64,000 nucleotides of DNA from Anaerolineae bacterium (GTDB taxonomy: Bacteria > Chloroflexota > Anaerolineae > B4-G1 > DUEL01): NCBI GenBank assembly GCA_016931695.1, contig JAFGEI010000022.1, positions 397 to 64,396 of the forward strand. Direction: 5' to 3'. Position numbers and translations under genes: made by a program. Shown piece after piece: positions 1 through 22,810 of this stretch (positions are counted from its first letter, which is position 1; every line of letters starts with the position of its first letter). Below the pieces are notes generated by a model. It worked only from the letters and a program-made list of their open reading frames with translations. It was not told the DNA's origin and did no database searches.

Positions 1-371
1 ATCTGGCGCTCCTGGCGCTGCGCCTCGGCAGTGGGCGCGGCAAAGGCCGGCGATTGGAGCCTGGCGACGGCCTGGGCCAGCATCTCCCGCTGGCAAGACA
101 GCTCTCCTGCAGCGCCGAAATCGCACTCCGGCAGCGCAAACTGCTGCAGCTCCCCCGCAACCCGGGCCAGGTCCTGCTCGACCCGTTCCAGCGCGGCCTG
201 CCGGGCCGTCAACGTGCTGCGCGCCGCCCCGAGCGGCCCATCGATGCGCACGCGCCAGGAGGGTCCGGCTGCCGCAGTCGAAAAGGCGCGGCCCGCCTCC
301 CCTGCCGCCGACCAGATTCCCAGCGGGTCCTCGCCGCCCGGCGGCGTGACCTCGCTCAGCAATTCGATCAC
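1..371 (-). CDS. Hypothetical protein, partial (runs off left edge), translationally coupled to the upstream C25-like peptidase
   Basis: GTG at 371-369 overlaps the TGA (370-368) of the upstream gene (GTGA). Frame is open to the window edge: VIELLSEVTPPGGEDPLGIWSAAGEAGRAFSTAAAGPSWRVRID...; absent from the ORF track because it has no stop. Confidence 0.75.
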   Translation of the reverse strand, partial: MIELLSEVTPPGGEDPLGIWSAAGEAGRAFSTAAAGPSWRVRIDGPLGAARSTLTARQAALERVEQDLARVAGELQQFALPECDFGAAGELSCQREMLAQAVARLQSPAFAAPTAEAQRQERQ

Positions 372-2353: not shown

Positions 2354-2381
2354 GGTTCCCTCCTTTTTACACAAATTCCAC

Positions 2382-7371: not shown

Positions 7372-10300
7372 TCAGGGTGATGGATTGGGCTCTCCGAGCT
7401 CTGGCGTTTGCCCCTCGATTGCAGGCGCGACGAGGGACCAGATGGAATCTATGGTTTCCCGGTCGAACTGGACCCGATAGCGGCGCAGGGTGCCGTCCCA
7501 CGAGCCGCTCGCCAGGTAACGACCGTCGGGGCTGTAGGCGACGCTCCAGATCAGGTCGGTGTGGCTGCTGATCGCCGTGACCAAGCGCGGCGATCGACGG
7601 GGCAGCGCCGACACGTCCCAGATTCGCAACCCGCCGTCCCGCGCCCCCGTTGCCAGGTAGCGCCCGTCGGGGCTGAAGGCGACGTCATAGACATAGCCGG
7701 GATGCTCCAACCGGCTCACCCGCTCCCCGCTGTCCAGGTCCCAAATGGCAACCGTGCCGTCCCAGGAGGCGGAAGCCAGATAGTCGTTGTTAGGACTAAA
7801 ATCGACGCCAAAGATCATGTTGGTGTGGCCGGTCAAGGTCATGGCCAACGTTGCCTCCAGTCTGCCATCAGGCTGGGCGACAAGCTCCCACAGGCGCACG
7901 GCGCTGTCGCGGTTGTGGAGGCCATGGGCCAGCGCGACGAGCCGCCCGTCGGGGCTAAAGTCGACATCATAGACCGGGCCGGGCCAGCCGCCGCGCGAGA
8001 GGACGGCAACGGACTGCCAACTCTCTGTCTCCCACACCAGCGCCGTCTGGTCGCCGGAGCCGGTGACCAGGAACCGCCCGTCAGGGTGAAAGGCCGCCGC
8101 CTGGACATTGGACTCGTGCCCGATCAGTTCTTGCACCCGCGTGCCGTCGGCGGCGTTCCAGACACGGGCGATGGCGTCGGAGCAGGTGACCATGTACTGC
8201 CCGTCCGGGCTATAGGCGACCGCCCAGACCTGACGGTCCAGCCTGGAGAGCGACTGCACAATCTGGCCGCTCTCGACCGACCAGACGTGCGCCCAGCCGT
8301 CATTGTCGCCGGAGGCCAGGCAGGCGCTGTCGGGGCTAAAGGCGATACCCCGCACGCGGGCAGTGTGGCCGCTGAGCATCGAAAAGACGCCCGCCTTGTA
8401 GGGAAAGTCGAGGTTCCAGATGCGCACGCGGTTGTCGCCAGAACCGGCGGCGATCGAGCTCCCGTCGGGGCTGAAGGCGACGGCGTGGACCAGGCTCGCC
8501 GGCCCGGTCAGGGTCGTGACGGGGTTGGGATTCCGCGCCGCAATGTCCCAGATGCGCACCGTCCGGTCGCGGGAGCCGGACACCAGCCGCGTGCCCGCCG
8601 TCTCGAAGGCGAGGCTGGTCACCGCCTCCGTGTGCCCCACCAGGGTCATGATCCCCTCCCATCTCGCGGTGTCCCAAACGCGGATGGTGTGATCCGCCGA
8701 GCCGGAGGCGAGCCAGGCGCCGTCGGGGCTGAAGGCGACGGCGCCGACGGCGGCGGTATGCCCGCCCAGGGTGGTGGGCGGCGGGGGGGTGCCGCGCAGC
8801 CCATTCGCCGTCCCGACGTCCCAGATGCGGACGAGGCCGTCGTCAGAGGCGGCGGCCAGGTAGCGGCCATCGGGGCCAAAGGCAATGTCCTGCACGCGGC
8901 CGGTGGGATCGGCAAAATCCAGGGCGGACGCGTCGACCTGGAGGATGCCGTCCGACGCAGTCGAGACGGCCCACAGGCGCACCATTCCCCCGTCGGTGCC
9001 GGAATTGAGATTGCGCGACTCGCCGCCATAATCTCCCCCGGTCGCCAGATACCGCCCGTCGGGGCTAAAGGCAACGGCATAGACCTCGTCGTATATGCCC
9101 TCCGGGGTGACAGCCTGAATCCACTGCCGCCACTCTCCCCGCTCGACGTCCCAGATCCCGACCTGGCCGCGGCCGTCGCTGTCGTTGCCGCCCACAGCCA
9201 GGAAGCGGCCGTCGGGGCTGAGGGCCAGGTCGTAGGCGGCGCGGGGGCCGCCGATGTTGCGCGGTTCCCCTCCGGCGGTCACGTCCCAGACCAGGATGCC
9301 GCGCATCTCGCCTTCGACCTCGGCGGCGTGAATCGCGGCGTAGAGGTAACGGCCGTCCGCGCTGTAGACGATGCTGTTGACCTGGTCGTGGGGCTGGTCG
9401 AGGACGTGGGAGAGGTAGAAATCGGCCATCGTCTGCCCGAGCACGATCTCGGCCTGGGACGTATCGACCCGGCCGAGAAGGGGCCGGACGAAGCGGAGCA
9501 ACTCGCTGGCATCTGCCAATACCACCCCTTCCCGGGCCGCCTGGACGCTCTGCAGCTGGTCGATGGGCCAGAGGTAGAGCGCCTGGGCGGCCATCTGGCG
9601 GGAATAGGCGGCCAGGGCGCCGCGGGCGGCGGTCCAGGCCAGAAACAGAACGAGGAGCAGGCCGAGGGGCAGGCCAACGCGCAAAGCCACGCGCAGGCGC
9701 TGGCCTCGCCGGCTGGCCTGCAGGAACTCGCGCTCGTACGGCTCGACTTCGCCGGGCCGTTCCCTGGCCCAGGCCCGGGCCTGGACCAGCGCCCGGTCGC
9801 GGTAGAGCAGCGAGCGGTCCCCGGTCTCTTTCCACTGCCGCGCCGCCTTGCGCAGCGGCGTCTCTCGCGCCGCCTCCCAGGCCCGGTTCGACGCCAGGAC
9901 GGGGTCGATGAGTCGGTCGTGAGCCAGCTCGTACCAGCGCGCACCGGCCCGCAGCTCGGAATGCAACAACAACCGCCCTTCCAGCACGTCCACCGCCTGG
10001 TTAGACAATCCGGCCGTTTCGTCCGCCTCGCGCACGACCAGGCCGCGGGTTCCCAACGGGGTAATCAACTGTTCCGAGAACCAGGCCCGCAGCTCCCGCT
10101 CCTCGGCCTGGACCTCGTCCCGCGCCGCGGCCAGGCCGCGTTCGTAAAAGTCGGCCAGCGCGCGGTCGACGTCGCCGTACTGCGCCACCTCCTGCCAGGT
10201 GATCGTATAATCGTCCTGCTCCGGCATGCCCGCCCAGAGGCGGCTGCAGACCACCTGCAGCTGCACCGGCTCCACTACTGGCCCCAACAGCGCATCGCCG

Positions 10301-11064
10301 GCCTCCTCCTGCCCGGCGATGCGCTGCTGCTTGATGCGCCGCAGGTCGTCGACCAGGCGCTCGGCAACGCCGGGGGCAAAGGGACAACCGGCGTTCGCGG
10401 CCGGCCGGGTCACCGCCTCCAACGCCTCTTCGACGCCCAGCCGGTCCATCCAGAAACGGGCCCGCAAGCGGTTGGGCAGCTCGGCGGCGTAGGGCTCGAG
10501 CTCGGCCACGTAATCCTCGCGGATGGTCAAGACCACGCCCAGCCGGGGCTGGGCGTCCAGCGCCGCGGCGAGCTGCTGGAAAAAGCCCCGCGCCTCCTGC
10601 CAGCGGTCGCGATGGGCGGTGAACAGCTCTTCGAATTGGTCGACGATCAGCAGCGGCGCCCGCGCGCCCCACAAGAGGTCCTCCGTTTCGTCGGCGGTAT
10701 GGGCCGCCACGGCCGCGCTCAGCGTCTGGCCGAGCAGGGCCGCGGGGTCCGCCGCCTCCCCGGCCAGGCCGACGAGGGCGCTCAAGACAAAGACGTTCTC
10801 GACCGCCGCGGGCTCGACGCCGTAGGGAATCGCCTGCCCCACCCGCACCACCGGCAGGACGTCAAAGCCCTCCTCCTCCAGAGCGGGAATCACCACCGCG
10901 TTCAGGAGCGAGGTCTTGCCCGCCCCCGACTTGGCGTAAAAGAGCACCACCCGCTCGGCGAGGATGAGCGAGACCAGATCGCGCCCTTCCCGGCTGCGAC
11001 CAAAAAAGTTATGGCGGTCCGCCCGCTCGTAGGGCCGGGGTCCGACGTAGGGATTATCTTTCAT
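7372..11064 (-). CDS. nSTAND-type P-loop NTPase, TM helix, WD40 repeat protein (paralog 1)
   Basis: NPYVGPRPY..FFGR, Walker A YAKSGAGKTS, Walker B LIVDQFEELF, YELAHDRL; hydrophobic helix GLPLGLLLVLFLAW; many GH..AFSPDG..WD repeats. Confidence 0.9.
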   Translation of the reverse strand: MKDNPYVGPRPYERADRHNFFGRSREGRDLVSLILAERVVLFYAKSGAGKTSLLNAVVIPALEEEGFDVLPVVRVGQAIPYGVEPAAVENVFVLSALVGLAGEAADPAALLGQTLSAAVAAHTADETEDLLWGARAPLLIVDQFEELFTAHRDRWQEARGFFQQLAAALDAQPRLGVVLTIREDYVAELEPYAAELPNRLRARFWMDRLGVEEALEAVTRPAANAGCPFAPGVAERLVDDLRRIKQQRIAGQEEAGDALLGPVVEPVQLQVVCSRLWAGMPEQDDYTITWQEVAQYGDVDRALADFYERGLAAARDEVQAEERELRAWFSEQLITPLGTRGLVVREADETAGLSNQAVDVLEGRLLLHSELRAGARWYELAHDRLIDPVLASNRAWEAARETPLRKAARQWKETGDRSLLYRDRALVQARAWARERPGEVEPYEREFLQASRRGQRLRVALRVGLPLGLLLVLFLAWTAARGALAAYSRQMAAQALYLWPIDQLQSVQAAREGVVLADASELLRFVRPLLGRVDTSQAEIVLGQTMADFYLSHVLDQPHDQVNSIVYSADGRYLYAAIHAAEVEGEMRGILVWDVTAGGEPRNIGGPRAAYDLALSPDGRFLAVGGNDSDGRGQVGIWDVERGEWRQWIQAVTPEGIYDEVYAVAFSPDGRYLATGGDYGGESRNLNSGTDGGMVRLWAVSTASDGILQVDASALDFADPTGRVQDIAFGPDGRYLAAASDDGLVRIWDVGTANGLRGTPPPPTTLGGHTAAVGAVAFSPDGAWLASGSADHTIRVWDTARWEGIMTLVGHTEAVTSLAFETAGTRLVSGSRDRTVRIWDIAARNPNPVTTLTGPASLVHAVAFSPDGSSIAAGSGDNRVRIWNLDFPYKAGVFSMLSGHTARVRGIAFSPDSACLASGDNDGWAHVWSVESGQIVQSLSRLDRQVWAVAYSPDGQYMVTCSDAIARVWNAADGTRVQELIGHESNVQAAAFHPDGRFLVTGSGDQTALVWETESWQSVAVLSRGGWPGPVYDVDFSPDGRLVALAHGLHNRDSAVRLWELVAQPDGRLEATLAMTLTGHTNMIFGVDFSPNNDYLASASWDGTVAIWDLDSGERVSRLEHPGYVYDVAFSPDGRYLATGARDGGLRIWDVSALPRRSPRLVTAISSHTDLIWSVAYSPDGRYLASGSWDGTLRRYRVQFDRETIDSIWSLVAPAIEGQTPELGEPNPSP

Positions 11065-11070
11065 CTTCCC

Positions 11071-14000
11071 TCACTCCCCCGCTGACGACAGGCCAGGGCA
11101 GATCTCGACCTCGTCGCCAATGAACAGATATTGTTCCTCCAACGTCAGGCCGCGTTGCAAGCGGGCGCATACTGCCTGGATGATCTCTTCGGCACGCCAG
11201 AGCCAGAAATAGAGCCCTTCGTACTGGCTGGCAGGATAGTCGCTGTACGTGACGAGCCACGGGGTATCGGGGACGAACGCCGCCGCCGTCACCCCGCCCG
11301 CCGCAGGGATAGCGGAGCCGGGAAACGGGAGTTGCAGCAGCTCTCCGCCCGAGGTGACGTTCCACATCCGGATCAGCGGGCAGCCCGACAGGCCGCGCGG
11401 ATCGCCGACGGGCGGGGTGTCGTAGGTCATCATCCACTCCGACTGCCCGGCAAAGCCGGCGATGGCAACGCCAGCCAGTTCGGTCTGGTGAACGCGGGCA
11501 ACTTCCTGCCAAAACTCGGTATCGACCAGGACCACCTCGCCCCCCGCAAGCATGACGATCCGCTGTCCATCCGGGCTGAAGGCGACATCGTCGATGAACT
11601 CGATGTACCCGTACTGCCGCAAGTTCTCGCCCGTCGCCAGGTCCCACAGCCCAATGGCGGTCGGCATGGATTGTTCGACAAGGTCGTAGCTGGCGATCAA
11701 CAACTGCTGGCTGTCGGGGCTAAAGGCCATCGCGCCGATATCGCTCAAGTAGCCGCTCAAAGCAATTTCCTCCCCGCTGACGACCTCCCATACCCCCACC
11801 GTGCCATCCCCCGCTGCAGCGGCGACCCAACGGTCATCGGGACTAAAGACAATCACCGCGGCGGTGGCCCCTGTCTCTCCCTCCTGCGTCGCCTGCTGCG
11901 TCCCCTGTTGCCCGACGGGCAGCAGCATTTGCAATTGCGCGCTCGCCACCTCCCAGACCTCGATCGTGCCATCCTCGCCGACGACGGCAACCCATTGTCC
12001 ACCGGGGCTGAAAACCACCCCGGCCACCAGCCCCTGCGACCCAACAGCGTGCATTTCCTCCCCACTGGACAGCTCCCATATCCGCACGGTGCCGGCCTCG
12101 CCGAGCACGGCCACCCACTGCCCATCCGGATCAAAGACCACGTCCGCGACGGGTTCGTGCTGCTCCAACGAGAGCGTCTCTCGCCCGCTCGCCAGGTCCC
12201 AGACGCGGACCGTTTGCCCCTCGATCCCGGCGACCCACTGCCCCCCTTCGTGGAGGTAGAACTCGCCGGTCATACCGGCGAGGGGATGCTCGCTCACCTG
12301 GTGCAGCTTGCCGCTGTCCCACTCCCAGACCGTCACGCTCCGCCCGGCAGCGACGGCGAGCAGATTTCCCTCGGCATCCATCGCGGCGACCTCTCCCTCC
12401 AGGCGGGCGATCTCTTCCCACTGCCCGTCATCCAGCCAAATCCGCGTCATGCTGTCGCCAGCGAACAGCAGCCAGGAACTGTCGCTGCTGCCGGCAAACT
12501 GGGGAACCAGTTCGCCTATCGCCCCCCACAGCATAAAAGGCTGGGGGTCGTCTTGCCAGTTCCAGGCGTAGGCATCGAAAGATGGGTCGCGGTAATCGTC
12601 GTTGGCATACCAGGCGACCTGCCCGCCGTTGGAACTCATCACCAGGCCAAAGGGGCGGCCCGTCCCCCACTCGGCCAGCTGCTGATCCTCCCGCCAGTCC
12701 CACACGGCCACACCGCCCCCACCCTCACTGGCGGTGGCGACGTACTGCCCGTCGGGACTGAAAATGACCTCCGTCACCGGCAGCCGGGAGGCCTCGCCGG
12801 TCAACTGGGTCACCTGTTGGCTGGTGCCGACGTCCCATATCCGCACCGTTCCATCACTGCCCGCCGTCACCAGCTGCTGCCCGCTGGCAGAGAAGGAGAG
12901 ATCGACGACGGCGCCCGAGTGTCCCCGCAGCAGCGCCAGCGGGTCGGCCGTTGCCGTCTCCCACACCTGGACCAGGCCGCTGCTATCGACCGTGGCCAAC
13001 TGTTGGAAATCAGCGCTGAACGCCAGTTGCGTGTAATCCGTCGCCACAGTCGTCTCCTGGCCGGTGGTGACGTCCCAGACGCGAATGCGGCCCGGGCCAT
13101 CGGCAATCGCCAGCCAGCGGCCATCGTCGCTGGCAGACAAAAGCTGCCCTGCCTCTTCTGCGACCGATTCGCCCGAACTGACGTCCCAGATCTGCAGGCC
13201 GCTCTCGCCCGCCGTCACCAGCCAATCTCTCTCGGAGACAAAGACGAGGTCTGTGACCTCTTCCGGGTGTTCCACCTGGACCACGATCGGGCCGGTGAAA
13301 TCTAGCATGTTTTGGAGGACGCCGTTGGCCTTGACCGAGGGGTAGCGGTTCAGCGACTCGATAGCCAGAAACTCGCCGACCAGCCAGGATTGGGCCGCGG
13401 TATCGTAGAAATCCTCGGCAATGGTGGCAAGATATTGGGCAAACGAGCGATCGAGCTCGAGCTGGCGCTGGGCCACCAGTGCCTCATAGGCAGCAACTGC
13501 CGTGGCCTGGGCAGCCAGGGCGGCTTCTCTTTGCTCCATGGCCAGGTTGCGCTGAACATCGGCGTCCGCCTGAGCGGTAAGAGCGAGGCTGCGCTGCAGG
13601 TCTGCATCGGCATAGGCGGTCAGGGCGACGTCGCGCTGCTCCTCCGCCGCCATCTGGCCCCGCAAGGCGGCGATGGTCAAGACGGCCATGACCAACCCGC
13701 CGACCAGCAAGGCAATGGAAACCGCTCGCCGCAAGCGCCGCCCACGGGCGGCGCGCAGTTCCTGGGCCTGCTGGCTGGCTGCCAGAAAGGCCGTTTCGTA
13801 AGACGCCACCTGGCCGGGGTGAGCCTGGGACCACTCCAGGGCCTCTTGTAGTGCCTGATCGCGGTAGAGCAGCGAATCGTCGCCGACCTCTTGCCAGCGG
13901 CGGGCAGCCATCCGCAGCGGCGTTTCCTGGGCCGCCTCCCAGGCCTCGTTGGAGGCCAGCACCGGGTCCACCAGCCGGTCGTGGGAGAGCTCGTACCAGC

Positions 14001-15117
14001 GCGCTCCGGCCCGCGCCTCGGCGCGGATCAGCCGCTGCTTTTCCAGGACGTCGACCGCCGCGTTGGGCAGCCCGGCCGTCTCGACCTCGCCGCGGACGGC
14101 CAGGCCCTTGGTTCCCATCGGCGTGATCATCTGCTGGGAAAACCAGCGGCGCAGCGCTCGCTCGCCCACCTGGGTCTCTTGCACTGTCTCGGCCAGCGCA
14201 CTTTCGTAAAAGTTGCTCAGCGCCTGGTCGACGTCGCCATATTTCTGCACGTCATCCCACTGGATGACGCCTTTTCCTTCCGACAAGCCTTCCCACAAGC
14301 GGCTGCAGACCACCTGCAGCTGCACCGGTTCCACGTACGGCCCCAGCACCTCCGCCTCTTCCTGCTCGCTCTGTTTCTGCACCTTGATCCGCCGCAGGTC
14401 GTCGACCAGCCACTCGGCAACCTCGGGGGCAAAGGGATAGCCCTCGTTCGCGGCCGGTTTCTCCACCGCCTCCAGCGCCCCCTCGGCGCCCAGGCGTTCC
14501 ATGCGAAAGCGCGCCTTGAGGCGCCGGGGAAAGAGCGCGGCGTAGGCATCCAGCTCGGCCACATAATCCTCGCGCATGGCAAAGACCACGCCCAGTTGGG
14601 GGTATTTGTCCAGCGCCTCGGCCACCTGTTCAAAGAACTCGCGCCGCTCCTGCCACCGCTCCCGGTGGGCGGTAAAGAGTTCTTCGAACTGGTCAAAGAC
14701 CACCAGCGTCGAGCGGGTTCCCAGGAAAGGGTCCGCTTTCTCTGCGCGACAGTGCGTCACCAGGAACGAGGAAACGGTTCGAGAGAGCAGCGTCTCCGGC
14801 GGCATATCCCCTTGGGCCAATCCCATCAAGGCGCTAAAGACAAAGACGTTGCGGACCATGCCGGGACCGATCCAGGACGGGATTTCGCTGCCCACCCGCG
14901 CCAGGGGCAGGACGGCAAAGCCCTCTTCTTCCAGCGCGGGGATGACGGCGGCGTTCAAGAGCGACGTCTTGCCCGCGCCCGACTGGGCGTAAAAGAGCAC
15001 CACCCGCTCGGCCAGGATTAACGACTGCAGGTCCCGCGCCTCGCGGTTGCGGCCGAAAAAGTTGTGGCGGTCCGCCCGCTCATAGGGCCGGGGTCCGACG
15101 TAGGGATTATCTTTCAC
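11071..15117 (-). CDS. nSTAND-type NTPase, TM helix, coiled coil, WD40 repeat protein (paralog 2)
   Basis: Start moved to GTG 15117, which overlaps the CHAT-SIR2 stop and aligns with paralog 1 (KDNPYVGPRPY). YAQSGAGKTS, VVFDQFEELF; TM AVSIALLVGGLVMAVLTIA; WD40 repeats. Confidence 0.9.
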   Translation of the reverse strand: MKDNPYVGPRPYERADRHNFFGRNREARDLQSLILAERVVLFYAQSGAGKTSLLNAAVIPALEEEGFAVLPLARVGSEIPSWIGPGMVRNVFVFSALMGLAQGDMPPETLLSRTVSSFLVTHCRAEKADPFLGTRSTLVVFDQFEELFTAHRERWQERREFFEQVAEALDKYPQLGVVFAMREDYVAELDAYAALFPRRLKARFRMERLGAEGALEAVEKPAANEGYPFAPEVAEWLVDDLRRIKVQKQSEQEEAEVLGPYVEPVQLQVVCSRLWEGLSEGKGVIQWDDVQKYGDVDQALSNFYESALAETVQETQVGERALRRWFSQQMITPMGTKGLAVRGEVETAGLPNAAVDVLEKQRLIRAEARAGARWYELSHDRLVDPVLASNEAWEAAQETPLRMAARRWQEVGDDSLLYRDQALQEALEWSQAHPGQVASYETAFLAASQQAQELRAARGRRLRRAVSIALLVGGLVMAVLTIAALRGQMAAEEQRDVALTAYADADLQRSLALTAQADADVQRNLAMEQREAALAAQATAVAAYEALVAQRQLELDRSFAQYLATIAEDFYDTAAQSWLVGEFLAIESLNRYPSVKANGVLQNMLDFTGPIVVQVEHPEEVTDLVFVSERDWLVTAGESGLQIWDVSSGESVAEEAGQLLSASDDGRWLAIADGPGRIRVWDVTTGQETTVATDYTQLAFSADFQQLATVDSSGLVQVWETATADPLALLRGHSGAVVDLSFSASGQQLVTAGSDGTVRIWDVGTSQQVTQLTGEASRLPVTEVIFSPDGQYVATASEGGGGVAVWDWREDQQLAEWGTGRPFGLVMSSNGGQVAWYANDDYRDPSFDAYAWNWQDDPQPFMLWGAIGELVPQFAGSSDSSWLLFAGDSMTRIWLDDGQWEEIARLEGEVAAMDAEGNLLAVAAGRSVTVWEWDSGKLHQVSEHPLAGMTGEFYLHEGGQWVAGIEGQTVRVWDLASGRETLSLEQHEPVADVVFDPDGQWVAVLGEAGTVRIWELSSGEEMHAVGSQGLVAGVVFSPGGQWVAVVGEDGTIEVWEVASAQLQMLLPVGQQGTQQATQEGETGATAAVIVFSPDDRWVAAAAGDGTVGVWEVVSGEEIALSGYLSDIGAMAFSPDSQQLLIASYDLVEQSMPTAIGLWDLATGENLRQYGYIEFIDDVAFSPDGQRIVMLAGGEVVLVDTEFWQEVARVHQTELAGVAIAGFAGQSEWMMTYDTPPVGDPRGLSGCPLIRMWNVTSGGELLQLPFPGSAIPAAGGVTAAAFVPDTPWLVTYSDYPASQYEGLYFWLWRAEEIIQAVCARLQRGLTLEEQYLFIGDEVEICPGLSSAGE

Positions 15118-17138
15118 TTTCCCTCCCATTCTGCTCGCAACTCGGCCATAAACTGCTGCGTGCTGCCCCAAAAGACATTGATCTCGGCATCCTGAAAATA
15201 CTGCTGCAAAAAGCTCTGCACGGCAGCAGTGTCGGCCCGGCCTGCCTCGTCGAACTCGAGTTGCACGGCAACGTGCTTGAAGCGCCGCCGCTGGTCAGCC
15301 GACGCCACCAGGCCGCGCAGGATGACGCGAAACTCCCAGTCGTGCAGGCTGTAGCCGACAAAGAGCAGCGAACTGCTGGCAATCGCGCCGCGGATGAAAT
15401 GGGGCACCCGCTCCATCTCGGCCGAGACGCGCACCAAAAAGTCGAGATAGTCGTCCTCAGATAGCACCAGCGAATCGACCGCCTCGTCGCTGCCAAAGAG
15501 ATGATAGACCAGCGGCGCCTCGGGCGTGGGCACATAGTTGGGATCGTCCTCAAAGAGCGAAGGCAACCCGTCCAGCAGCCGGTTCCAGCGGCAGACCTCG
15601 CGCGCCGGTTCTTTCCCAGCCGCCGCCAGCGCCTCGAACATCAGGCTGTCAAAGTTAGTGGTCAGGTAGAGCGGGAGGTCCAGGCTCGCCAGCACGCGGT
15701 GGGCCTCGTTGGGGTCGTCGGCGACGAGGTTCGACCAACCGACCGCCCGCAGCAGTTGCGTCGCCGTCTCACAGTCGGCCTCGGGCCGCAGTTCCTCCGG
15801 CAGGCGCGCGTGGAGATAGCACCTGAGCGCGTCCACCGCCTCCCAGCGGGGGAAATCCTTGCCCTGGTTGCTGGCCAGGTACTGGGCGACGCGGGGCAGC
15901 TCGTGCGCGTCCTCAAAAGGGTACCCGTGCAGTTCAGACCAGCTGAGGGCGATTTCCCTGGGAGTTGGCAGCCAGCGTCCGTGGACCCGCGGGCCGATGA
16001 TGGGCGTGCACTTTTTCTGCTCGATCATGCGCACCAGGCCGGACCAAAAGACGCGCGGGTTCTTGCTGCCGAGGACCTGGCCGCGGGCGTCGGCCTCTGC
16101 ACCCCACAGCTGGCCGGAGCGGAGGCGCATAAAGAGCACCGGCACGGCGGCGGCAGGGCGGCCGGCGGTGAGCAGGGTGGCGCGCGCCTCGTTGGCCGCC
16201 TTGTCGACCCGGCCGTGCGCCAGCAGGCGCTGGTAAAAGACCGTGCTGAAGGTGCGGGCGGTCTCGACGGGGACAAAATCCTGCATCGCAATAACCGCCG
16301 GGACGCCGACCGAGACCAGCTTGGGAGCCAGGCCGCGGAAGGCATCCCCGGTATCGCGGCTCGCGCTCTGGCAGGCGGCGAGAAAGACGAGCCGGGGGTG
16401 GACGTCCTGCCGCGCCAGCATGCAGGCGATCTCGTCGTCGGGGACGATCGCCGCGTTGCCCGCGCCGTCCTGCAGGTAGAGCACCGCCTGCCCCCGCCGC
16501 TGGCTGAACGCGCCGTGGCCCAGGTAGTGCAGGACGTGGGCGCCCTGCCGCAGCGCCGCCTCCAACCGCTCCAGCGTCACCGGCGGCTCGAGAACGGTCA
16601 GTGACAGCTCGCCGGGGTCGATCTCGCCCAGCGCCGCCGCCAGCGCCGCCCGCTCCACGGCGACGTCGAACGGCTCCAGGTTATAGTTCGCCAGGTCGCC
16701 GGGGTTCGAGATCGCCGCCAACACCCGGATCGGCCGCTCGTCCACTGCGCCGCCCCAGGGCAGAGCGACGGGCAGGTAGCGGGAGAAAGGCGTGTGGGCG
16801 TGGGCGGCGAGCATTACCGTTTCCTCGTGCAGCAGCTCCCAGGGCAGGCCGTGCAGCTCGGCGGCGCCGAGGTCGATGCGCAGGCGGATGGCACGCTGAG
16901 GCGCCGCGCCGCGGATCTCGGCCCACGCTTGCTGCAGGACCGGGTCGGCCAGCAGGCGCTCGATCAGCTGCTGCCCGTCCGCGACGGGGTTGCCGCTGGC
17001 AGCCCAGGAGGCGACGGCGGGATCAAGGTGGCCGCGAGGAAAGGCCCGCTCGCCAGCCAGGGTAAATTCGACCGGGTAACCCTCGCCGCGCAGGGGAAAA
17101 ATGCGCACCTCTAAATCCATCAGGAATTCATCGCTCAT
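15114..17138 (-). CDS. CHAT protease domain + SIR2-like domain fusion
   Basis: CHAT: LPWELL, VLHYLGHG, LVFLAACQS, AVIAMQ. SIR2-like: TPIIGP, YLTTNFD, YHLFGS, LVLSEDDY, LLFVGYSLHDWEFR. Confidence 0.85.
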   Translation of the reverse strand: MSDEFLMDLEVRIFPLRGEGYPVEFTLAGERAFPRGHLDPAVASWAASGNPVADGQQLIERLLADPVLQQAWAEIRGAAPQRAIRLRIDLGAAELHGLPWELLHEETVMLAAHAHTPFSRYLPVALPWGGAVDERPIRVLAAISNPGDLANYNLEPFDVAVERAALAAALGEIDPGELSLTVLEPPVTLERLEAALRQGAHVLHYLGHGAFSQRRGQAVLYLQDGAGNAAIVPDDEIACMLARQDVHPRLVFLAACQSASRDTGDAFRGLAPKLVSVGVPAVIAMQDFVPVETARTFSTVFYQRLLAHGRVDKAANEARATLLTAGRPAAAVPVLFMRLRSGQLWGAEADARGQVLGSKNPRVFWSGLVRMIEQKKCTPIIGPRVHGRWLPTPREIALSWSELHGYPFEDAHELPRVAQYLASNQGKDFPRWEAVDALRCYLHARLPEELRPEADCETATQLLRAVGWSNLVADDPNEAHRVLASLDLPLYLTTNFDSLMFEALAAAGKEPAREVCRWNRLLDGLPSLFEDDPNYVPTPEAPLVYHLFGSDEAVDSLVLSEDDYLDFLVRVSAEMERVPHFIRGAIASSSLLFVGYSLHDWEFRVILRGLVASADQRRRFKHVAVQLEFDEAGRADTAAVQSFLQQYFQDAEINVFWGSTQQFMAELRAEWEGK

Positions 17139-17265
17139 CTTTTGCTCCTCTCCTCGTTCTGTATGCTGTGAGAAAAGTGCCGGGCAGCAACCTGAGTAAC
17201 TTGAAAGGTCCCATTTGCGGCTATCCGACCGTCAAGGTCTGGAAAACAGCTTTTTTTCGTAACTC

Positions 17266-17411
17266 GACAATGGCACATTTCAACATTGGATGCTCTACCG
17301 CAGTGGGAGAAGGGGAAAAGGGGGTTTCGCAGGCGGCTTCGCCGCCTGCGAAACCCCCTTTTCCCCCTTCCCCGTGCTTGGCAGAGCAATCTAATGAAAT
17401 GTGCCATTGTC
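17266..17411. repeat. MITE/REP-like long palindromic element
   Basis: Perfect 17-bp terminal IR gacaatggcacatttca / tgaaatgtgccattgtc; perfect 26-bp central stem 17312-17337 / 17341-17366 with TTC loop. Confidence 0.8.
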
Positions 17412-17445
17412 AAAGTAACCACTGTAACTGCCCCAGAATCTGGTC

Positions 17446-20400
17446 TCAATGGGATGATTCTTCCGGCACTGCAAGTTCGGGACAGGTGGGATGGTATGGC
17501 TCATCTCCAAGGTACCGGCTCCATTCTTCGCGGGTCAGGTTGCGATACAGATTTGCGCAAACCTGCGCGACCAAATCTTGGGGTTGCCACCACCAGATCC
17601 AGGCTGTGTCGTAGCTGATGCTTGCAATCCACTGGTCGTTCTGGCTGAAGGCGACATTGTCCGGGTATCCCAACACGTGTTCGATGCGAGTGACCTCCCT
17701 GCCAGAATCAACCTCCCAGACTCGCACTGTACCGTCGTAACTGGAGGAAACCAGCCACTGGCCGTCGGAACTGAAAGCCATGGCCAGCACCTGGCCATCG
17801 TGCTCCAAACGCCTGATCTCCCGCGCAGTGATTGTATCCCATATCCATATCGTGCCGGCCTCATATCCTGCCGCCACGTGCTGGCCATCTCTGCTCAACG
17901 CTACGGCTGTCAAAGGAGATGGCAAGGCAAGTTGATCCACTTTTTGCCCTGTCTCAATGTCCCAAGAGATGACTGTACCGTTATGGCTTGCCGATACAAC
18001 CCTTTCTCCATCGGACGCAAAGGCTACCGCGTTCACCTCCCAGCCGTGATCCATCCGGGCAATCTCGCGTGCAGCCGCCACCTCCCACACCAGCACGATG
18101 CCGTCGCCCCCGCCGGACACCCCCCATTCCTCATTGGGGCTGAAGGCCACGCTGTTTGCCTGCCACCCGTGTTCAATCCAGCCCACCATCCGTCTGCCAG
18201 ATGTCTCCCATACTTGAACCGTCCCGTCGCGGTTTCCAACGATCAGCCATTGCCCGTTGGGGCTGTAGGTCACAACCTCGACCTGGCTCGCCGAGCACGT
18301 GACCTGCTCTCCCACGACTTGGATGTCATCAGTTCTCGCCAGGTCCCACCACCACAGGGAACCATCGTCGCCTCCCGTGACTGCCGATTGGTTGTCTGGG
18401 TGGATCGCCAGGCTGTTTAGTCGACCCTGGTGCATCATCCGGGCTACCTCTCGCCCCTCGACCCTTCTTTCGTCCAGCATCATCGAGATGTTCCACACCC
18501 GAATCGTGGCATCCCGCCCCCCTGAGACGACCCACTGGTCATCGTGGGCAAAGGCAACAGCGGCGATCTCGCCTTCCTGTTCTATGCGGGCGACCTCCTC
18601 CCCGGTCTCCAGATCCCAAACCCGCGCCGTGCCGTCGTTGCTCGCCGTGAGGAGCCACTGACCATCGGCGCTGAGCACGGCGTCGACCACCGTGGCTTGA
18701 TGCCCGCGCAGCACGACGACCTCACGCCACGTCTCCACCTCCCATATCCTTGCTTTGAAATCATCGCTGCCAGAGATGAGCCACCGGCCGTCAGGGCTAA
18801 AAGCCAGGTAAAACACACGCCCGTTATGGAGCAAGCGGGCGACCTCTTCCCCTGTAGCGACTGACCAGACCCTGGCCGTGTTATCGTCGCTCCCCGAGAC
18901 GATCCAGCGGCCATCTGGACTAAAGACCACGTCCCGCACCCTGGCGTCGTGGGCGACCTGAAGGACCTCTTTTCCAGTGGCCGTTTCCCAGACCACGGCG
19001 GTGCCATCCTCGCTTCCCGATGCCACCCAGCGACTATTGGGACTGAATGCCACGGCCAACACGCCAACCTGATCGTGACCTGGGGGGGGCAGTTCGGTAC
19101 TGAACCCATGCTCCAGGCGGGCCACTTCCTCCCCGGCGACAATGTTCCATATCCGTACCTGGCCAGAAATGCCGATTGTCCGCTCTGTATTCCCGCGAAC
19201 GAGCTGGCCACCTCCCCAGGCCACAAATTCTCCATTGGGGCTAAAGGCAGCGTCATTTATCGAGTTTGCATCTGCCACCTGCACAATCGCTGTTCCAGTG
19301 TCTGGAGACCACACGATCGCGCCGCCAGAGCTCTCGGTCACCTCGCCGGCGCTATCCCAGGCGAGTTCACCGCTGCCCGACAGCACCCATTCCCCACCGG
19401 GACTGAGCGCCACGACATTGATCGGCTCCTCGTGCTGCACTCGGACTCGCTCTCGGCCTGTGTCCACCTCCCAAATCCTCGCCGTGCCTCCCTCGTCACC
19501 CGAAACGCCCCACGTACCGTCAGGGCTGAGAACCATCGTGTTCACATCGCTCCCAAGTTCTACGAGCACCAACGGTTGGGCGAGCCCGTCGAGCAGCCTT
19601 TGCAAGGTGATGCTGGCTTCCAGATTTGGCTCCCGTTGTATCGACTCGACAGCCAAAAGACTGGCCAGGGTCCAGGTTCCCCGATTGCGCTCCACCTCTG
19701 CCTGTGCCGCCAACCGAAGAGCTGTAGCGATACGGGTCTGCTGTCGCGCCTCGCCCCAGCCGTAGAAAGCAAATACCGCTGCCACAGCTACAATAGCCAA
19801 ACCAACTCCCAGCCCAGCTATGATCATTCTGCGCAATCGGCGTTTCCTGTTCCGTTCTTGCTCTACCTTCTGGCTCGCGGCCAGGAACTCGGTCTCGTAA
19901 GACTCTGCGATGTCAGGGTTCGCCAGTGCCCAGGCCAGTGCCTCTTCCAGCGCCTTGCCGCGGTAAAGCAGCGATTCGTTCTCTGTTCTTTTCCACTGTT
20001 GTGCAGTCTTGCGCAAAGGCGTTTCCTGCCGCGCCTCCCAGGCCTCATTCGACTCGACGATTGGGTCGATCAATCGATCGTGAGCGAGTTCGTACCACCG
20101 TGCTCCGGCTCGAACTTGTACTCGGATCAGTCGCCGTTGCTCCAGTATATCGACTGCCAGGTTGGACAGTCCTTCCGTTTCCGCCTCTCCGCGCACGACG
20201 AGCCCTTTTGTCTTCATCGGCGTGATCAGTTGCCTGGTGAACCAGCGGCGAAGCTGCCGCTCGTTCACCCCGGCCTGTTGCACGATCTCTGCCAGGGCGC
20301 CCTCGTAAAAGCCGGTCAGCGCCCGGTCGACATCGCCATACTTTTGTACATCCTCCCACAGGATGACATCCTTTTCCTCTGGCAGCCCTTCCCACAACCG

Positions 20401-21216
20401 GCTACAGACCACCTGGAGCTGCACGGGCTCCACGTACGGTCCGAGCGCCTTGGCTTCTTGTATCTCGGCTCGCCGCTGTATCTTGATCTGCCGCAGGTCA
20501 TCCACCAGCCAACTGGACACGTCGGCGGCGAACGGACAGCCACCATTTGCCGCCGGCCTTTCTACAGCTTCCAGCGCCCCCTCCAAGCCCAGCCGTTCCA
20601 TGCGGAATCGTGCTTTGAGCCGCCGGGGCAGCAGTGCGGCGTAGGGATCCAATTCGGCCACGTAATCTTGGCGCATGACCAAGACCACGCCGATCTGCGG
20701 ATGGGCATCCAGTGCCTCCACTACCTGAGCGAAAAAACCTTGCCGCTCTTGCCACCGTTCCTGGTGCGTGGTAAAAATCTCTTCAAACTGGTCAAACACC
20801 ACCAGTGTTGACTGCTTCATCAGAAAAGATCGCTCTTCCCTTTCCTGGCAGTGCATTGCCAGGAAAGAGGACAAGGTCTGTCCCAGCAGGGTTTCGGGAG
20901 CCGTATGATCTCCCGCCATCGTCATCAGCGCACTGAAGACAAAGATGTTTCCCCCTGCCTCGGTGCCGATCCAAGATGGCGCGTCGCCGCTTACCCGGGC
21001 CGTGGGGAGAATGGTAAAGCCTTCCTCTTCCAATGCCGGGATGACAACGGCGTTCAGGAGCGAAGTCTTGCCCGCGCCCGACTGGGCATAGAACAATACG
21101 ACTCGTTCCGCCAGGATGAGCGAGACCAAATCCCGCCCCTCCCGATTGCGTCCGAAAAAGTTGTGGCGATCAGCCCGTTCGTAGGGGCGAGGGCCAATGT
21201 AGGGATTGTTTTTCAT
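17446..21216 (-). CDS. nSTAND-type NTPase, TM helix, WD40 repeat protein (paralog 3)
   Basis: MKNNPYIGPRPY, YAQSGAGKTS, VVFDQFEEIF, YELAHDRL; TM MIIAGLGVGLAIVAVAAVFAFY; WD40 repeats. Confidence 0.9.
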   Translation of the reverse strand: MKNNPYIGPRPYERADRHNFFGRNREGRDLVSLILAERVVLFYAQSGAGKTSLLNAVVIPALEEEGFTILPTARVSGDAPSWIGTEAGGNIFVFSALMTMAGDHTAPETLLGQTLSSFLAMHCQEREERSFLMKQSTLVVFDQFEEIFTTHQERWQERQGFFAQVVEALDAHPQIGVVLVMRQDYVAELDPYAALLPRRLKARFRMERLGLEGALEAVERPAANGGCPFAADVSSWLVDDLRQIKIQRRAEIQEAKALGPYVEPVQLQVVCSRLWEGLPEEKDVILWEDVQKYGDVDRALTGFYEGALAEIVQQAGVNERQLRRWFTRQLITPMKTKGLVVRGEAETEGLSNLAVDILEQRRLIRVQVRAGARWYELAHDRLIDPIVESNEAWEARQETPLRKTAQQWKRTENESLLYRGKALEEALAWALANPDIAESYETEFLAASQKVEQERNRKRRLRRMIIAGLGVGLAIVAVAAVFAFYGWGEARQQTRIATALRLAAQAEVERNRGTWTLASLLAVESIQREPNLEASITLQRLLDGLAQPLVLVELGSDVNTMVLSPDGTWGVSGDEGGTARIWEVDTGRERVRVQHEEPINVVALSPGGEWVLSGSGELAWDSAGEVTESSGGAIVWSPDTGTAIVQVADANSINDAAFSPNGEFVAWGGGQLVRGNTERTIGISGQVRIWNIVAGEEVARLEHGFSTELPPPGHDQVGVLAVAFSPNSRWVASGSEDGTAVVWETATGKEVLQVAHDARVRDVVFSPDGRWIVSGSDDNTARVWSVATGEEVARLLHNGRVFYLAFSPDGRWLISGSDDFKARIWEVETWREVVVLRGHQATVVDAVLSADGQWLLTASNDGTARVWDLETGEEVARIEQEGEIAAVAFAHDDQWVVSGGRDATIRVWNISMMLDERRVEGREVARMMHQGRLNSLAIHPDNQSAVTGGDDGSLWWWDLARTDDIQVVGEQVTCSASQVEVVTYSPNGQWLIVGNRDGTVQVWETSGRRMVGWIEHGWQANSVAFSPNEEWGVSGGGDGIVLVWEVAAAREIARMDHGWEVNAVAFASDGERVVSASHNGTVISWDIETGQKVDQLALPSPLTAVALSRDGQHVAAGYEAGTIWIWDTITAREIRRLEHDGQVLAMAFSSDGQWLVSSSYDGTVRVWEVDSGREVTRIEHVLGYPDNVAFSQNDQWIASISYDTAWIWWWQPQDLVAQVCANLYRNLTREEWSRYLGDEPYHPTCPELAVPEESSH

Positions 21217-21301
21217 GACCTCACGACTTTCACCAGTTTGCCAGGGAATCCGCTACGATCCGTTTCACGGTCGCTGATACTTTACCAGGTGCAAGAGACG
21301 G

Positions 21302-22810
21302 TTATTCCACCCACCCACGGCTGCGCTCGACCGCCCGCTGCCAGCCGGCGTAGACTGCCTGGCGGCGGGCGTCGTCCCACTGCGGCTCAAAGACGCGGTC
21401 GACGCCCCAGTTGGCCCGCAGTTCGCCCAGGTCGGACCACAGCCCGGCCGCCAGCCCGGCGGCGTAGGCGGCGCCCAACGCAGTGGTCTCGTTGACCGTC
21501 GGCCGGACCACCGGCACGCCGAGAACGTCGGCCTGGAGCTGCATGAGCAAGTCGTTGACCGTCGCCCCGCCGTCGACCTTGAGCGCGGTCAGCTCGATGC
21601 CCGAATCGGCCCGCATCGCCTCCAGCACGTCGCGGGTCTGGTAGCAGATCGCCTCCAGCGTCGCCCGTACCAGGTGAGCCCGCCCCACGTAGCGGGTCAG
21701 GCCGACGATGACGCCGCGGGCGTCCATGTCCCAGTAGGGGGCAAAGAGGCCGGAGAAGGCGGGGACGAAATAGATGCCGCCGGCGTCGTCGACGCTGCGG
21801 GCAATGGCCTCTGTCTCGGCGGCGTTCTCGATCAGGCCCAGGTTGTCGCGCAGCCACTGCACGGCGGCGCCGGTGATGGCGATCGAGCCCTCCAGGGCGT
21901 AGGTGGTGCCCGCCGGCAAGCCGTAAGCGACGGTGGTCAGCAGGCCGCTTTGGGAGGGGACGATCTCGCCGCCGGTGTTGAGCAGCATAAAGCAGCCGGT
22001 GCCGTACGTGTTCTTGGCCTCGCCGGGTTCGTAGCCGGCCTGGCCAAAGAGCGCCGCCTGCTGGTCGCCCAGGTCGCCGCAGATGGGCGTCGACGCACCC
22101 ATCGCCCGCGCCTGGCCGTAGAAAGCGGGGTCGGAGGACGGGCGGATGCGGGGCAGCATCTGCCGCGGGATGGTCAGCGCCTCGAGCAGCTCGGGCTCCC
22201 AATCGAGTGCCGCCAGGTTCATCAGCATGGTGCGGCTGGCGTTGGTCACGTCGGTAACGTGGGCGCCCCCATCCGGCCCGCCGGTCAGGTTCCAGATCAG
22301 CCAGGTGTCGACGTTGCCGAACAGCGCCTCGCCCCGCTCGCCCTTTTCGCGCAGGCCGGGGACGTGGTCGAGCAGCCACTTGAGCTTGGGGCCGGAAAAG
22401 TAGGTGGCGACCGGCAGGCCGGTCCGGGCGCGAACGGTCTCCTCCCAACCGTCCGCGACGAGCTGGCGGCAGAGCTCACGGGTGCGGGTGTCCTGCCAGA
22501 CGACGGCGTTGTACAGCGGCTCGCCGCTGCGCGGGTCCCAGACGACGGTCGTCTCGCGCTGGTTGGTGATACCGATGGCGGCGATCTGTTCCATCCCCAG
22601 CCCGCCCTGGTCCAGCGCGCCGGCAATCACCCGCCGGGTCCTGGCCCAGATCTCGCGCGGGTCGTGCTCGACCCAGCCAGGCTGGGGATAAATCTGGGCG
22701 TGTTCCTCGTAGCACGAAGCGACTACCCGCCCGCTGCGATCAAAGACCATGAAGCGGGTGCCGGTGGTGCCCTGGTCGACAGCGGCGGCGTACTCGGGGC
22801 GATCGCTCAT
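21302..22810 (-). CDS. glpK: Glycerol kinase
   Basis: [59 protein letters not shown]. Confidence 0.95.

Follow-up and report, generated by a model that had tools for sequence, protein, structure and literature searches.

Introduction

To our knowledge, the STAND and NLR-type immune receptors of known mechanism all sense their ligands inside the cytoplasm. Apaf-1 is a soluble STAND NTPase with two trigger-binding WD40 propellers, and its oligomerisation activates a caspase by proximity, caspase-9 being recruited via a CARD. The Avs (or AVAST) proteins, reportedly described by Gao and colleagues in 2022, are antiviral STAND proteins. Here we describe three paralogous proteins, p1, p2 and p3, each of which joins an nSTAND1 NTPase head and a WD40 sensor by way of one hydrophobic helix, encoded on contig JAFGEI010000022.1 of the Anaerolineae bacterium assembly GCA_016931695.1 (a genome 93% complete). 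We analysed a 64,000-nt stretch of this contig, called the window throughout. Its left 21.3 kb, all on the minus strand, encodes in transcription order p3, a CHAT-SIR2-like protein, p2, p1, a CHAT-TPR protein and two paralogous C25-like proteins. The feature is real and is an uncharacterised variant of STAND conflict systems; new here are the three-sensor array, the evidence for head-sensor recombination and a predicted interface between head and SIR2-like domain. On balance we lean towards reading the locus as an array of sensors serving a conflict operon, whether for immunity or for programmed cell death, in a filamentous chloroflexotan of the Anaerolineae type, with outward propellers and a docked protease.

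The nSTAND1 family was named by Kaur, Iyer, Burroughs and Aravind (eLife 2021, PMC8195603), and section 7 of that paper, the part drawn on here, describes nSTAND1 proteins with FGS sensors and with N-terminal effector-associated domains or fused effectors. According to the accessible text of Kibby et al. (10.1101/2022.07.19.500537), NACHT proteins with transmembrane regions may sense intramembrane or periplasmic signals. Periplasmic sensors are predicted for some STAND targets diversified by diversity-generating retroelements (DGRs) in the available portion of Doré et al. (2024), and the ParA 'PCTM' and receptor-like TIR-ParA systems (10.64898/2026.10.19.760177) are proposed, in the accessible part of that report, to sense invasion at the envelope.

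Results

Three nSTAND1 heads

The heads of p1, p2 and p3 are nSTAND1 STAND NTPases. Pfam nSTAND1 (PF20703) matches them at 125.3, 133.0 and 139.5 bits (cut-off 27.1; E 6e-36 to 3e-40), over model positions 1-376 of 379 and beginning at residue 5 of each paralogue. Pairwise BLASTP identity between the heads (residues 1-455) is 63-70%; an earlier reading made from the letters of the DNA (hereafter the sequence-only reading) had called the three N-terminal regions of ~450 residues highly similar, which is right if slightly generous. The STAND motifs, reportedly set out by Leipe and colleagues in 2004, are hhGRExE before the P-loop, Walker A, Walker B and a histidine of the winged-helix domain. 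The heads carry FFGRNRE at residues 20-26, Walker A as SGAGKTS at 46-52, DQFEE (Walker B) at 142-146 and AHD at 378-380, and residues G22, R23, G47, G49, K50, D142, E145, E146 and H379 are invariant in 52/52 aligned heads. Among 8000 candidates scored, 2962 were head homologues.

An AlphaFold (AF2) model of p3 residues 1-560, built from a 33-sequence alignment (predicted local distance difference test, pLDDT, 88.7; predicted TM-score, pTM, 0.75), places an NTPase, helical and winged-helix fold in the head, followed by one unbroken helix of 73 residues (439-511) that runs through the hydrophobic stretch and projects away from the head. Foldseek gave the head low TM scores (0.26-0.36 by query) because of this long helix, and VIA-align was therefore used. 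By that method the head aligned with the archaeal winged-helix Walker ATPases 2fna (SSO1545; Z 17.3, root-mean-square deviation 6.7, 301 residues aligned) and 2qen (Z 16.8), with ORC/Cdc6 at ~Z 15, and with the AVAST5 filament (14.2), NLRC4 (14.0), ZAR1 (12.7) and Avs4 (11.4). The similar ORC/Cdc6 scores mean that the fold alone does not separate STAND proteins from their AAA+ neighbours. A sequence search of the PDB with the head profile returned nothing meaningful (best E 0.41).

Ahead of the NTPase in p1-p3, where the Pfam match starts almost at once, there is neither an N-terminal effector-associated domain nor a fused effector; the effector candidates near p1-p3 are encoded as separate genes. 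The starts of p1 and p2 are also alike as DNA, as the sequence-only reading had pointed out: their first 50 nt (from 11064 and 15117, respectively) show 2 differences, compared with 10 for p1/p3 and 12 for p2/p3. Third-codon-position identity between p1 and p2 reaches 0.90 over their first 20 codons and falls to 0.45-0.80 in most of the windows that follow, and the longest exact nucleotide match between them is 34 nt. The pattern fits either a short conversion tract or nucleotide-level constraint at coupled starts.

A conserved hydrophobic helix between head and sensor

Each receptor has a single strong hydrophobic window, at residues 459-477 in p1, 466-484 in p2 and 464-482 in p3, with Kyte-Doolittle 19-residue means of 2.19, 2.52 and 2.65, the next-best window reaching 1.35-1.53 in each protein. 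The hydrophobic run is 19-22 residues long. It is preceded, within 15 residues, by 5, 6 and 8 Lys+Arg and followed by 2, in agreement with the Arg-rich patch before one hydrophobic helix that had been claimed for each protein. To see how general this is, one can turn to the homologues P0005-P0123 (n=119, two being the window's own p3 and p2; P numbers denote database proteins and L numbers loci). With a threshold of 1.9, in effect at least 2.0, the top hydrophobic window falls at residues 380-560 in 117/119. Lys+Arg is higher upstream than downstream of the helix in 106 of these 117, equal in 6 and lower in 5, and the mean net charge is +4.35 upstream vs. +1.41 downstream. A single predicted membrane helix between head and sensor is a conserved feature of the family, beyond chance.

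The heads are most likely cytoplasmic and the propellers outside the cytoplasmic membrane, as in a type-II single-pass protein, because the NTPase needs cytoplasmic nucleoside triphosphate (NTP) and a single pass separates the two compartments. This topology had been called established, a word too strong for it: hydropathy and charge bias agree with it, and the orientation remains a deduction from them. Very improbable, in our view, is that the hydrophobic stretch is buried or peripheral and the propellers are cytoplasmic, which would make these ordinary cytosolic STAND sensors like Avs. A run of this length and hydropathy, with a basic patch on the head side, conserved in nearly all homologues and modelled within one helix projecting from the head, argues against it, and with a single pass the two sides cannot both be cytoplasmic; on the other side stand the cytosolic location of most characterised STAND-WD40 proteins and the head-C25 fusions described below, which have no such helix, so that the head also works with cytoplasmic C-terminal domains.

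Elsewhere in the same genome are two Ser/Thr-kinase-nSTAND1-transmembrane-WD40 proteins, of 1902 residues (L035:4291-9999, minus strand) and 1468 residues (L036:66-4472). They have the same helix (Kyte-Doolittle means 2.96 and 2.49) and look like receptor kinases with a STAND switch placed between kinase and membrane helix.

Sensors of several classes behind one type of head

Beyond the helix the three proteins part company. In 50-residue windows, identity between the paralogues ranges from 42 to 92% as far as residue ~450 and beyond that point lies at 5-47% in most windows, and the post-membrane parts of p1-p3 are 25-30% identical by BLASTP. The sliding-window comparison thus gives a sharp step at the hydrophobic helix rather than uniform divergence, and the strong divergence that had been noted for the WD40 regions is real. 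Each sensor has ~12-13 WD-type blades, enough for two propellers. The 14-residue-repeat stalk that had been ascribed to p2 consists of two units, QRDVALTAYADADL / QRSLALTAQADADV, at residues 494-521, which agree at 10/14 positions. As an observation of its own, p2 (11074-11170) and p3 (17449-17540), and not p1, share a tail of the form C-x3-L-x-R-x-LT-x-EE ... C-P with cysteines ~24 residues apart; if the propellers are outside, these two cysteines could form a disulfide.

Sensors of other kinds occur within the same head clade. Besides WD40, they include PD40/DPPIV-N (P0008), an FGE-sulfatase domain (P0105) and ~530 residues without a Pfam match (P0038, P0047, P0059 and P0090). Together with the trees described next, this variety bears out the proposal that the sensors are exchangeable. 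Tandem Repeats Finder found no repeat of near-blade period and no blade-length tandem repeats of high nucleotide identity, and there is therefore no sign of repeat shuffling inside the propellers.

This last result also bears on allorecognition or kin discrimination, in which outward propellers would detect surface molecules of non-kin filaments and trigger death, as with the fungal HET-E and NWD NACHT-WD40 proteins. Fungal incompatibility loci are built from the same list of parts, namely STAND, WD40 and a death protease; an outward sensor would suit cell-cell contact, and the sensor classes are polymorphic between genomes. We nevertheless think this role improbable: the WD40 repeats here lack the high internal nucleotide identity typical of fungal allorecognition, and the operon contains no evident partner 'ligand' gene.

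Head and sensor histories disagree

The three heads form one clade, with a FastTree support of 0.985 among 120 heads and a Shimodaira-Hasegawa-like approximate likelihood ratio (SH-aLRT) of 95 in an IQ-TREE analysis of 29 heads, where the pairing of p2 with p3 has an SH-aLRT of 99. The sensors tell a different story. That of p1 is 51.5% identical over 726 residues to the sensor of P0020, from another genome, and ~29% identical to those of p2 and p3, placed 132nd and 114th in its list of matches. The p3 sensor is closest to that of P0018 (41.9% identical), and the p2 sensor has no close relative (best 28%). In the sensor tree of 26 proteins, computed with LG+G4 without a mixture model from WD40-repeat alignments, which are error-prone, forcing the p1-p3 sensors together costs 441 log-likelihood units (approximately unbiased, AU, test p 1e-60). 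In the head tree, a grouping of p3 with P0018, a group named after the tree was seen, is rejected (p 0.0005).

The conflict between the head and sensor trees implies one or more head-sensor exchanges, or else a homogenisation of the heads. Such an event is clear for the p2/p3 pair and possible for p1. Two further candidate discordances were weaker or failed. A mutual closest kinship of the p2 and p3 sensors was rejected only at the border (p 0.048), and a discordance between the p1 head and its sensor relatives was not upheld, a head grouping with P0020, P0012 and P0040 not being rejected (AU p 0.22).

A CHAT-SIR2-like partner predicted to dock on the head

The gene directly upstream of p2 encodes a protein whose two halves match different families. 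Pfam finds CHAT (PF12770) at 106.2 bits (cut-off 24) and SIR2_2 at 81 bits. The CHAT half is a clan CD CHAT peptidase by its dyad, His208/Cys256, which is present in 22/22 orthologues. The C-terminal half matches SIR2_2 and ThsA (E 2e-5 to 3e-6). However, the histidine of the canonical SIR2 HG motif ('MHG' in ThsA) aligns to Phe548, which is Phe or Leu in 22/22 orthologues; an invariant His546 lies two residues before it, and the glycine-rich loop reads GPR. The SIR2-like domain is probably not a canonical NADase. It is 57-78% identical across its top 120 relatives (119 with CHAT and SIR2_2, and one 393-residue entry with SIR2_2 alone), and is therefore under strong constraint. Altogether 469 partner homologues were found.

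Predicted complexes of the p2 head (residues 1-455) with partner residues 366-674 had interaction scores (ipSAE) of 0.59, 0.66 and 0.71 (median 0.66), vs. 0.00 for the best control. A value of 0.66 is reached by 116/157 solved complexes and 2/215 mismatched pairs, counts that hold roughly here since our own alignments were used. Partner pLDDT did not fall below 83, and 75% or more of the contacts are common to the runs. The contacts lie on the head at residues 22-38 (the GRxxE motif and the helix before the P-loop), 65, 131, 136, 173, 198, 201-202 and 212, and on the partner at 370, 529, 533-536, 575, 579-581, 583-588, 614-616 and 618-619. Of the 20 head contact residues, 15 are identical in all three paralogues, vs. 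250/455 over the whole head. These models support binding of the SIR2-like domain to the head.

A module conserved in other Anaerolineae

We scanned one genome per species for related loci and found 34, every one of them from an assembly of Anaerolineae, of Thermoflexales or of unclassified Chloroflexota. Of the 27 loci whose upstream flank extends for 2 kb or more, 20 have a same-strand CHAT-SIR2-like gene as the immediate upstream neighbour, often with a 4-nt overlap; of the 24 whose downstream flank is that long, 14 have one or two C25-like genes downstream. In its canonical form in relatives, the module runs from the CHAT-SIR2-like protein through a single nSTAND1-transmembrane-WD40 protein to a pair of C25-like peptidases. 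Most related loci show one sensor gene, whereas the window shows three, with three sensor classes, plus an extra gene for CHAT-TPR, a further caspase-like protease outside the module conserved in other genomes.

It had been proposed that all receptors feed one shared effector. What stands is that a single CHAT-SIR2-like gene serves three heads in this nearly complete genome and that its SIR2-like domain is predicted to dock on the head. Less favourable to the proposal are the two C25-like peptidases and, here, CHAT-TPR in the module, the missing canonical catalytic histidine of the SIR2-like domain, and the separation of p3 from the rest of the operon by a repeat element. The wider description of p1-p3 as transmembrane NLR-like receptors fares similarly: the STAND heads and the conserved helix carry it, the shared effector does so in part, and the topology had been put too firmly.

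The head clade is patchy. Of 61 genomes sampled from the order, 12 carry it, at 1-3 copies each, as do 0/20 other genomes of the same family. Such a distribution, together with varied sensor classes, would be a conflict-system signature. Several other genomes have two or three head-clade proteins on apparently one contig (of 161,593, 73,510, 60,047 and 62,545 bases), an example being P0010, P0039 and P0040 with partner P0127; sensor arrays may be common.

Loci that have no CHAT-SIR2-like gene keep other company. Their upstream neighbours include cyclase-AAA16 and TPR genes (L019, L021) and C39, muramidase or M23 genes (L033). In three of them a protein of ~1900 residues with FG-GAP and P_proprotein domains, probably an extracellular partner or target, follows the sensor gene (L025:13180-18834, L026:4862-10702 and L027:14090-19933).

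The same parts and topology might serve a role other than immunity, in which the receptors would report envelope state, nutrients or neighbour contact and would control a HetF-like CHAT protease with a part in cell division or differentiation of the filament. NCBIfam gives only sub-threshold matches, to propellers and to HetF; the cell-division protein HetF is its best match for the CHAT domain (E 2e-23, far below the cut-off). The receptor-kinase-like proteins of the same genome, the cell-wall hydrolases and giant, probably extracellular FG-GAP proteins beside some orphan homologues, and operon flanks free of known defence genes are further points in its favour. We consider it unlikely all the same. 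The head clade is patchy to the point of absence from the 20 other genomes of the family, the sensor gene has expanded in this lineage with different and swapped sensor classes, and C25-like domains occur elsewhere in fusions with NucA endonuclease and trypsin, a theme of published conflict systems; accessory conflict genes therefore fit better than core development.

C25-like proteins and their fusions

Pfam matches C25 in peptidase 1 only at E 0.004, below the cut-off, and not in peptidase 2. The proteins fall in Atlas clusters named C25 peptidase (score 0.97, structural TM 0.83) and have the SHG and ACY motifs. The family has 3443 representative relatives at E <= 0.001. Among 21 long relatives, 3 are fused to nSTAND1 heads and 5 to a NucA-type endonuclease, and there are single fusions to CHAT plus AAA_5, to subtilase and to DUF3160. 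The NucA fusions are P0307, P0317, P0324, P0327 and P0329, with trypsin also in P0307 and P0327; by analogy, they recall a published NucA-peptidase conflict system.

The database head-C25 fusions P0256, P0269 and P0392 have no strong hydrophobic helix. Another, at L023:4241-6973, likewise lacks a membrane helix and has GGP at its catalytic Cys motif, a hint that the sensor position is taken by an inactive peptidase fold.

Layout of the locus and genome setting

The features of the operon are listed in Table 1. Translation of p2 begins at a GTG that shares bases with the stop codon of the CHAT-SIR2-like gene (GTGA); this start is preceded by GGGAGGG and matches in position that of database protein P0006. 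The ATG of p1 begins 6 nt past the p2 stop. The overlap and the 6-nt spacer suggest translational coupling of the CHAT-SIR2-like gene, p2 and p1. Between its genes the operon has gaps of 123, 6 and 307 nt, the last filled by the repeat element. EACC1 systems have a small EACC1 gene with a single transmembrane segment upstream of the caspase gene (Kaur 2020, in the part of that work available). The locus is not such a two-gene system, as gaps of this size leave no room for a small upstream gene (by inspection of the gaps, small frames not being scored with an EACC1 model).

Table 1. Features of the left part of the window (coordinates in nt, counted from the first letter of the window).
Feature	Coordinates	Strand	Length and composition
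p3	17446-21216	-	1256 aa; nSTAND1 head 19852-21216, membrane helix 19762-19827, helical stalk, ~13 WD40 blades 17449-19599
Palindromic repeat element (MITE-like)	17265-17415	none	151 nt; between p3 stop and CHAT-SIR2-like start
CHAT-SIR2-like protein	15114-17138	-	674 aa; CHAT caspase-like 16044-17138, SIR2_2-like 15117-16043
p2	11071-15117	-	1348 aa, GTG start; nSTAND1 head 13753-15117, membrane helix 13660-13722, two 14-residue stalk repeats 13555-13638, ~12 degenerate WD40 blades 11074-13320
p1	7372-11064	-	1230 aa; nSTAND1 head 9700-11064, membrane helix 9625-9690, ~12 canonical WD40 blades 7375-9417
CHAT-TPR protein	5059-7248	-	729 aa; CHAT 93.8 bits and TPR families (Pfam)
C25-like peptidase 1 (clan CD, gingipain-like)	2382-5072	-	896 aa; 470-residue N-terminal region without assigned family; SHG / ACY His-Cys motifs
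C25-like peptidase 2	368-2356	-	662 aa from second Met; paralogue of C25-like peptidase 1; C-terminal coiled region

The palindrome is made of nested perfect stems (RNA fold -119.3 kcal/mol, z -15.3) and looks like a miniature inverted-repeat transposable element (MITE) or a repetitive extragenic palindromic (REP)-like element. It occurs at ~40 places in the genome, many of them exactly at contig ends, and therefore breaks assembly. It may act as a terminator, and from its position between p3 and the CHAT-SIR2-like gene it follows that p3 may be transcribed alone.

Upstream of the operon and across the rest of the window are housekeeping genes (FGGY kinase, aldolase, a MacB/HlyD exporter, glycosyltransferases, UvrC and GlyRS). 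In window positions 10001-22000 the G+C content is 0.62-0.67, vs. 0.68-0.70 in the flanks, and the GC skew is negative. The lower G+C, with a head clade not found in the 20 same-family genomes, suggests an acquired island.

Discussion

We infer an immune or cell-death role for this locus, and the favoured account would run as follows. The receptors would be embedded in the membrane, and each head, on the inner side, could hold the CHAT-SIR2-like protein via the His-less SIR2-like domain of that protein. Binding of an external ligand to a propeller (part of a phage, a breach of the envelope or a foreign cell, for instance) would cluster the receptors, whereupon the heads would oligomerise on NTP in STAND fashion. 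The CHAT domains would thus be brought together and activated by proximity, and would cut targets, possibly the C25-like peptidases, as a caspase-like cascade; the cell would be arrested or killed and the filament protected. Three sensors on near-identical docking surfaces would widen the range of triggers of one protease module.

Several observations weigh against this account. The outward orientation is predicted from the hydrophobic helix, the charge bias and the need for NTP, and WD40 propellers of the PF00400 type are mostly known as cytoplasmic. A cyclase-AAA_16-SBP_bac_5 protein on another contig of the same genome (L035:449-4402, minus strand) has no strong hydrophobic helix; its SBP_bac_5 domain, of a normally periplasmic type, apparently serves as a cytoplasmic sensor, so the kind of domain says little about where it lies. 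The complex score expresses the model's own confidence and is no measurement, and the enrichment of identity at the interface is modest (75% vs. 55%). NAD+ depletion, the obvious killing step, is doubtful because the SIR2-like domain has no canonical histidine and its Asn495, the asparagine of TTN(F/Y)D, is kept in 19 of 22 orthologues and varies in 3. The partner gene is absent from 7 of the 27 loci with sufficient upstream flank. Simple motif patterns did not find the catalytic motifs in the head-C25 fusions, and the fusions connect the C25-like family with the head and with conflict systems without pointing to a function. PADLOC has no model that matches the heads, neither Avs nor any other STAND, its sole match on the receptors, HEAT-ARM_XIII, falling on the WD40 part. 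Among the genes of the window there is neither a phage gene nor another known defence system beside the operon.

A fuller picture, which we offer tentatively and hold to be doubtful as a whole, is that of a membrane-embedded 'apoptosome'. Here a constant STAND head would be permanently docked to a caspase-like protease through a SIR2 fold turned adaptor, interchangeable propellers would sense an attacker at the surface before foreign DNA enters, several sensors would share one protease module, and head and sensor cassettes would recombine. If this is true, a STAND switch with its sensor across the membrane would be an outside-in version of NLR logic, and an alarm would be possible at adsorption or envelope breach. 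The module is common and compact, and in it a SIR2 fold may have changed from enzyme to adaptor. The array is also a natural experiment, with one head type and three sensor classes in a single operon.

In the literature searched, which included few subscription journals, we did not find a module of CHAT-SIR2-like, nSTAND1-transmembrane-WD40 and C25-like proteins; the figures or source data of the Kaur et al. papers of 2020 and 2021 may list the architecture. Shared with the published nSTAND1 proteins, as described in the portion of PMC8195603 used here, are the NTPase family, a variable C-terminal sensor (FGE/FGS in some homologues), caspase-like effectors and multicellular or filamentous hosts. 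The membrane helix, the predicted outward WD40 sensor, the separate CHAT-SIR2-like partner and the C25-like genes differ from the text of its section 7, and p1-p3 start directly with the NTPase, unlike the proteins presented in that part of the paper.

With Avs and bNACHT proteins the locus shares the STAND logic of sensor, NTPase and death effector and a similar head fold, as the AVAST5 and Avs4 alignments (Z 14.2 and 11.4) indicate. Avs proteins, however, are soluble single chains in which the effector is fused at the N-terminus and a TPR-like sensor binds the portal or terminase of a phage, whereas here there are one predicted membrane pass, a propeller sensor and a separate effector gene, and the receptors are not Avs proteins. 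The ParA systems, in the accessible part of their report (10.64898/2026.10.19.760177), share the layout proposed for the locus: an NTPase in the cytoplasm is joined by a single type-II helix to an extracellular sensor that varies, and the gene upstream encodes the effector (a caspase in some). Their NTPase is a ParA of the SIMIBI GTPase class, though, and that part of the report gives pentapeptide, TPR, SPOR or PASTA sensors and no WD40, and neither a counterpart of the putative SIR2-like adaptor nor the C25-like genes that are present here.

The partner resembles the SIR2 NADases Thoeris ThsA, DSR2 and KomC in the SIR2_2/ThsA match of its C-terminal half and in the TTN(F/Y)D asparagine of most orthologues, and differs from them in the replacement of the HG-motif histidine by Phe or Leu throughout and in its GPR loop. 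Like the Apaf-1 apoptosome, the receptors combine a STAND NTPase with blades enough for two WD40 propellers; unlike Apaf-1, they have a membrane helix between switch and sensor, and recruitment of the caspase-like protein is predicted to occur via a SIR2-like domain.

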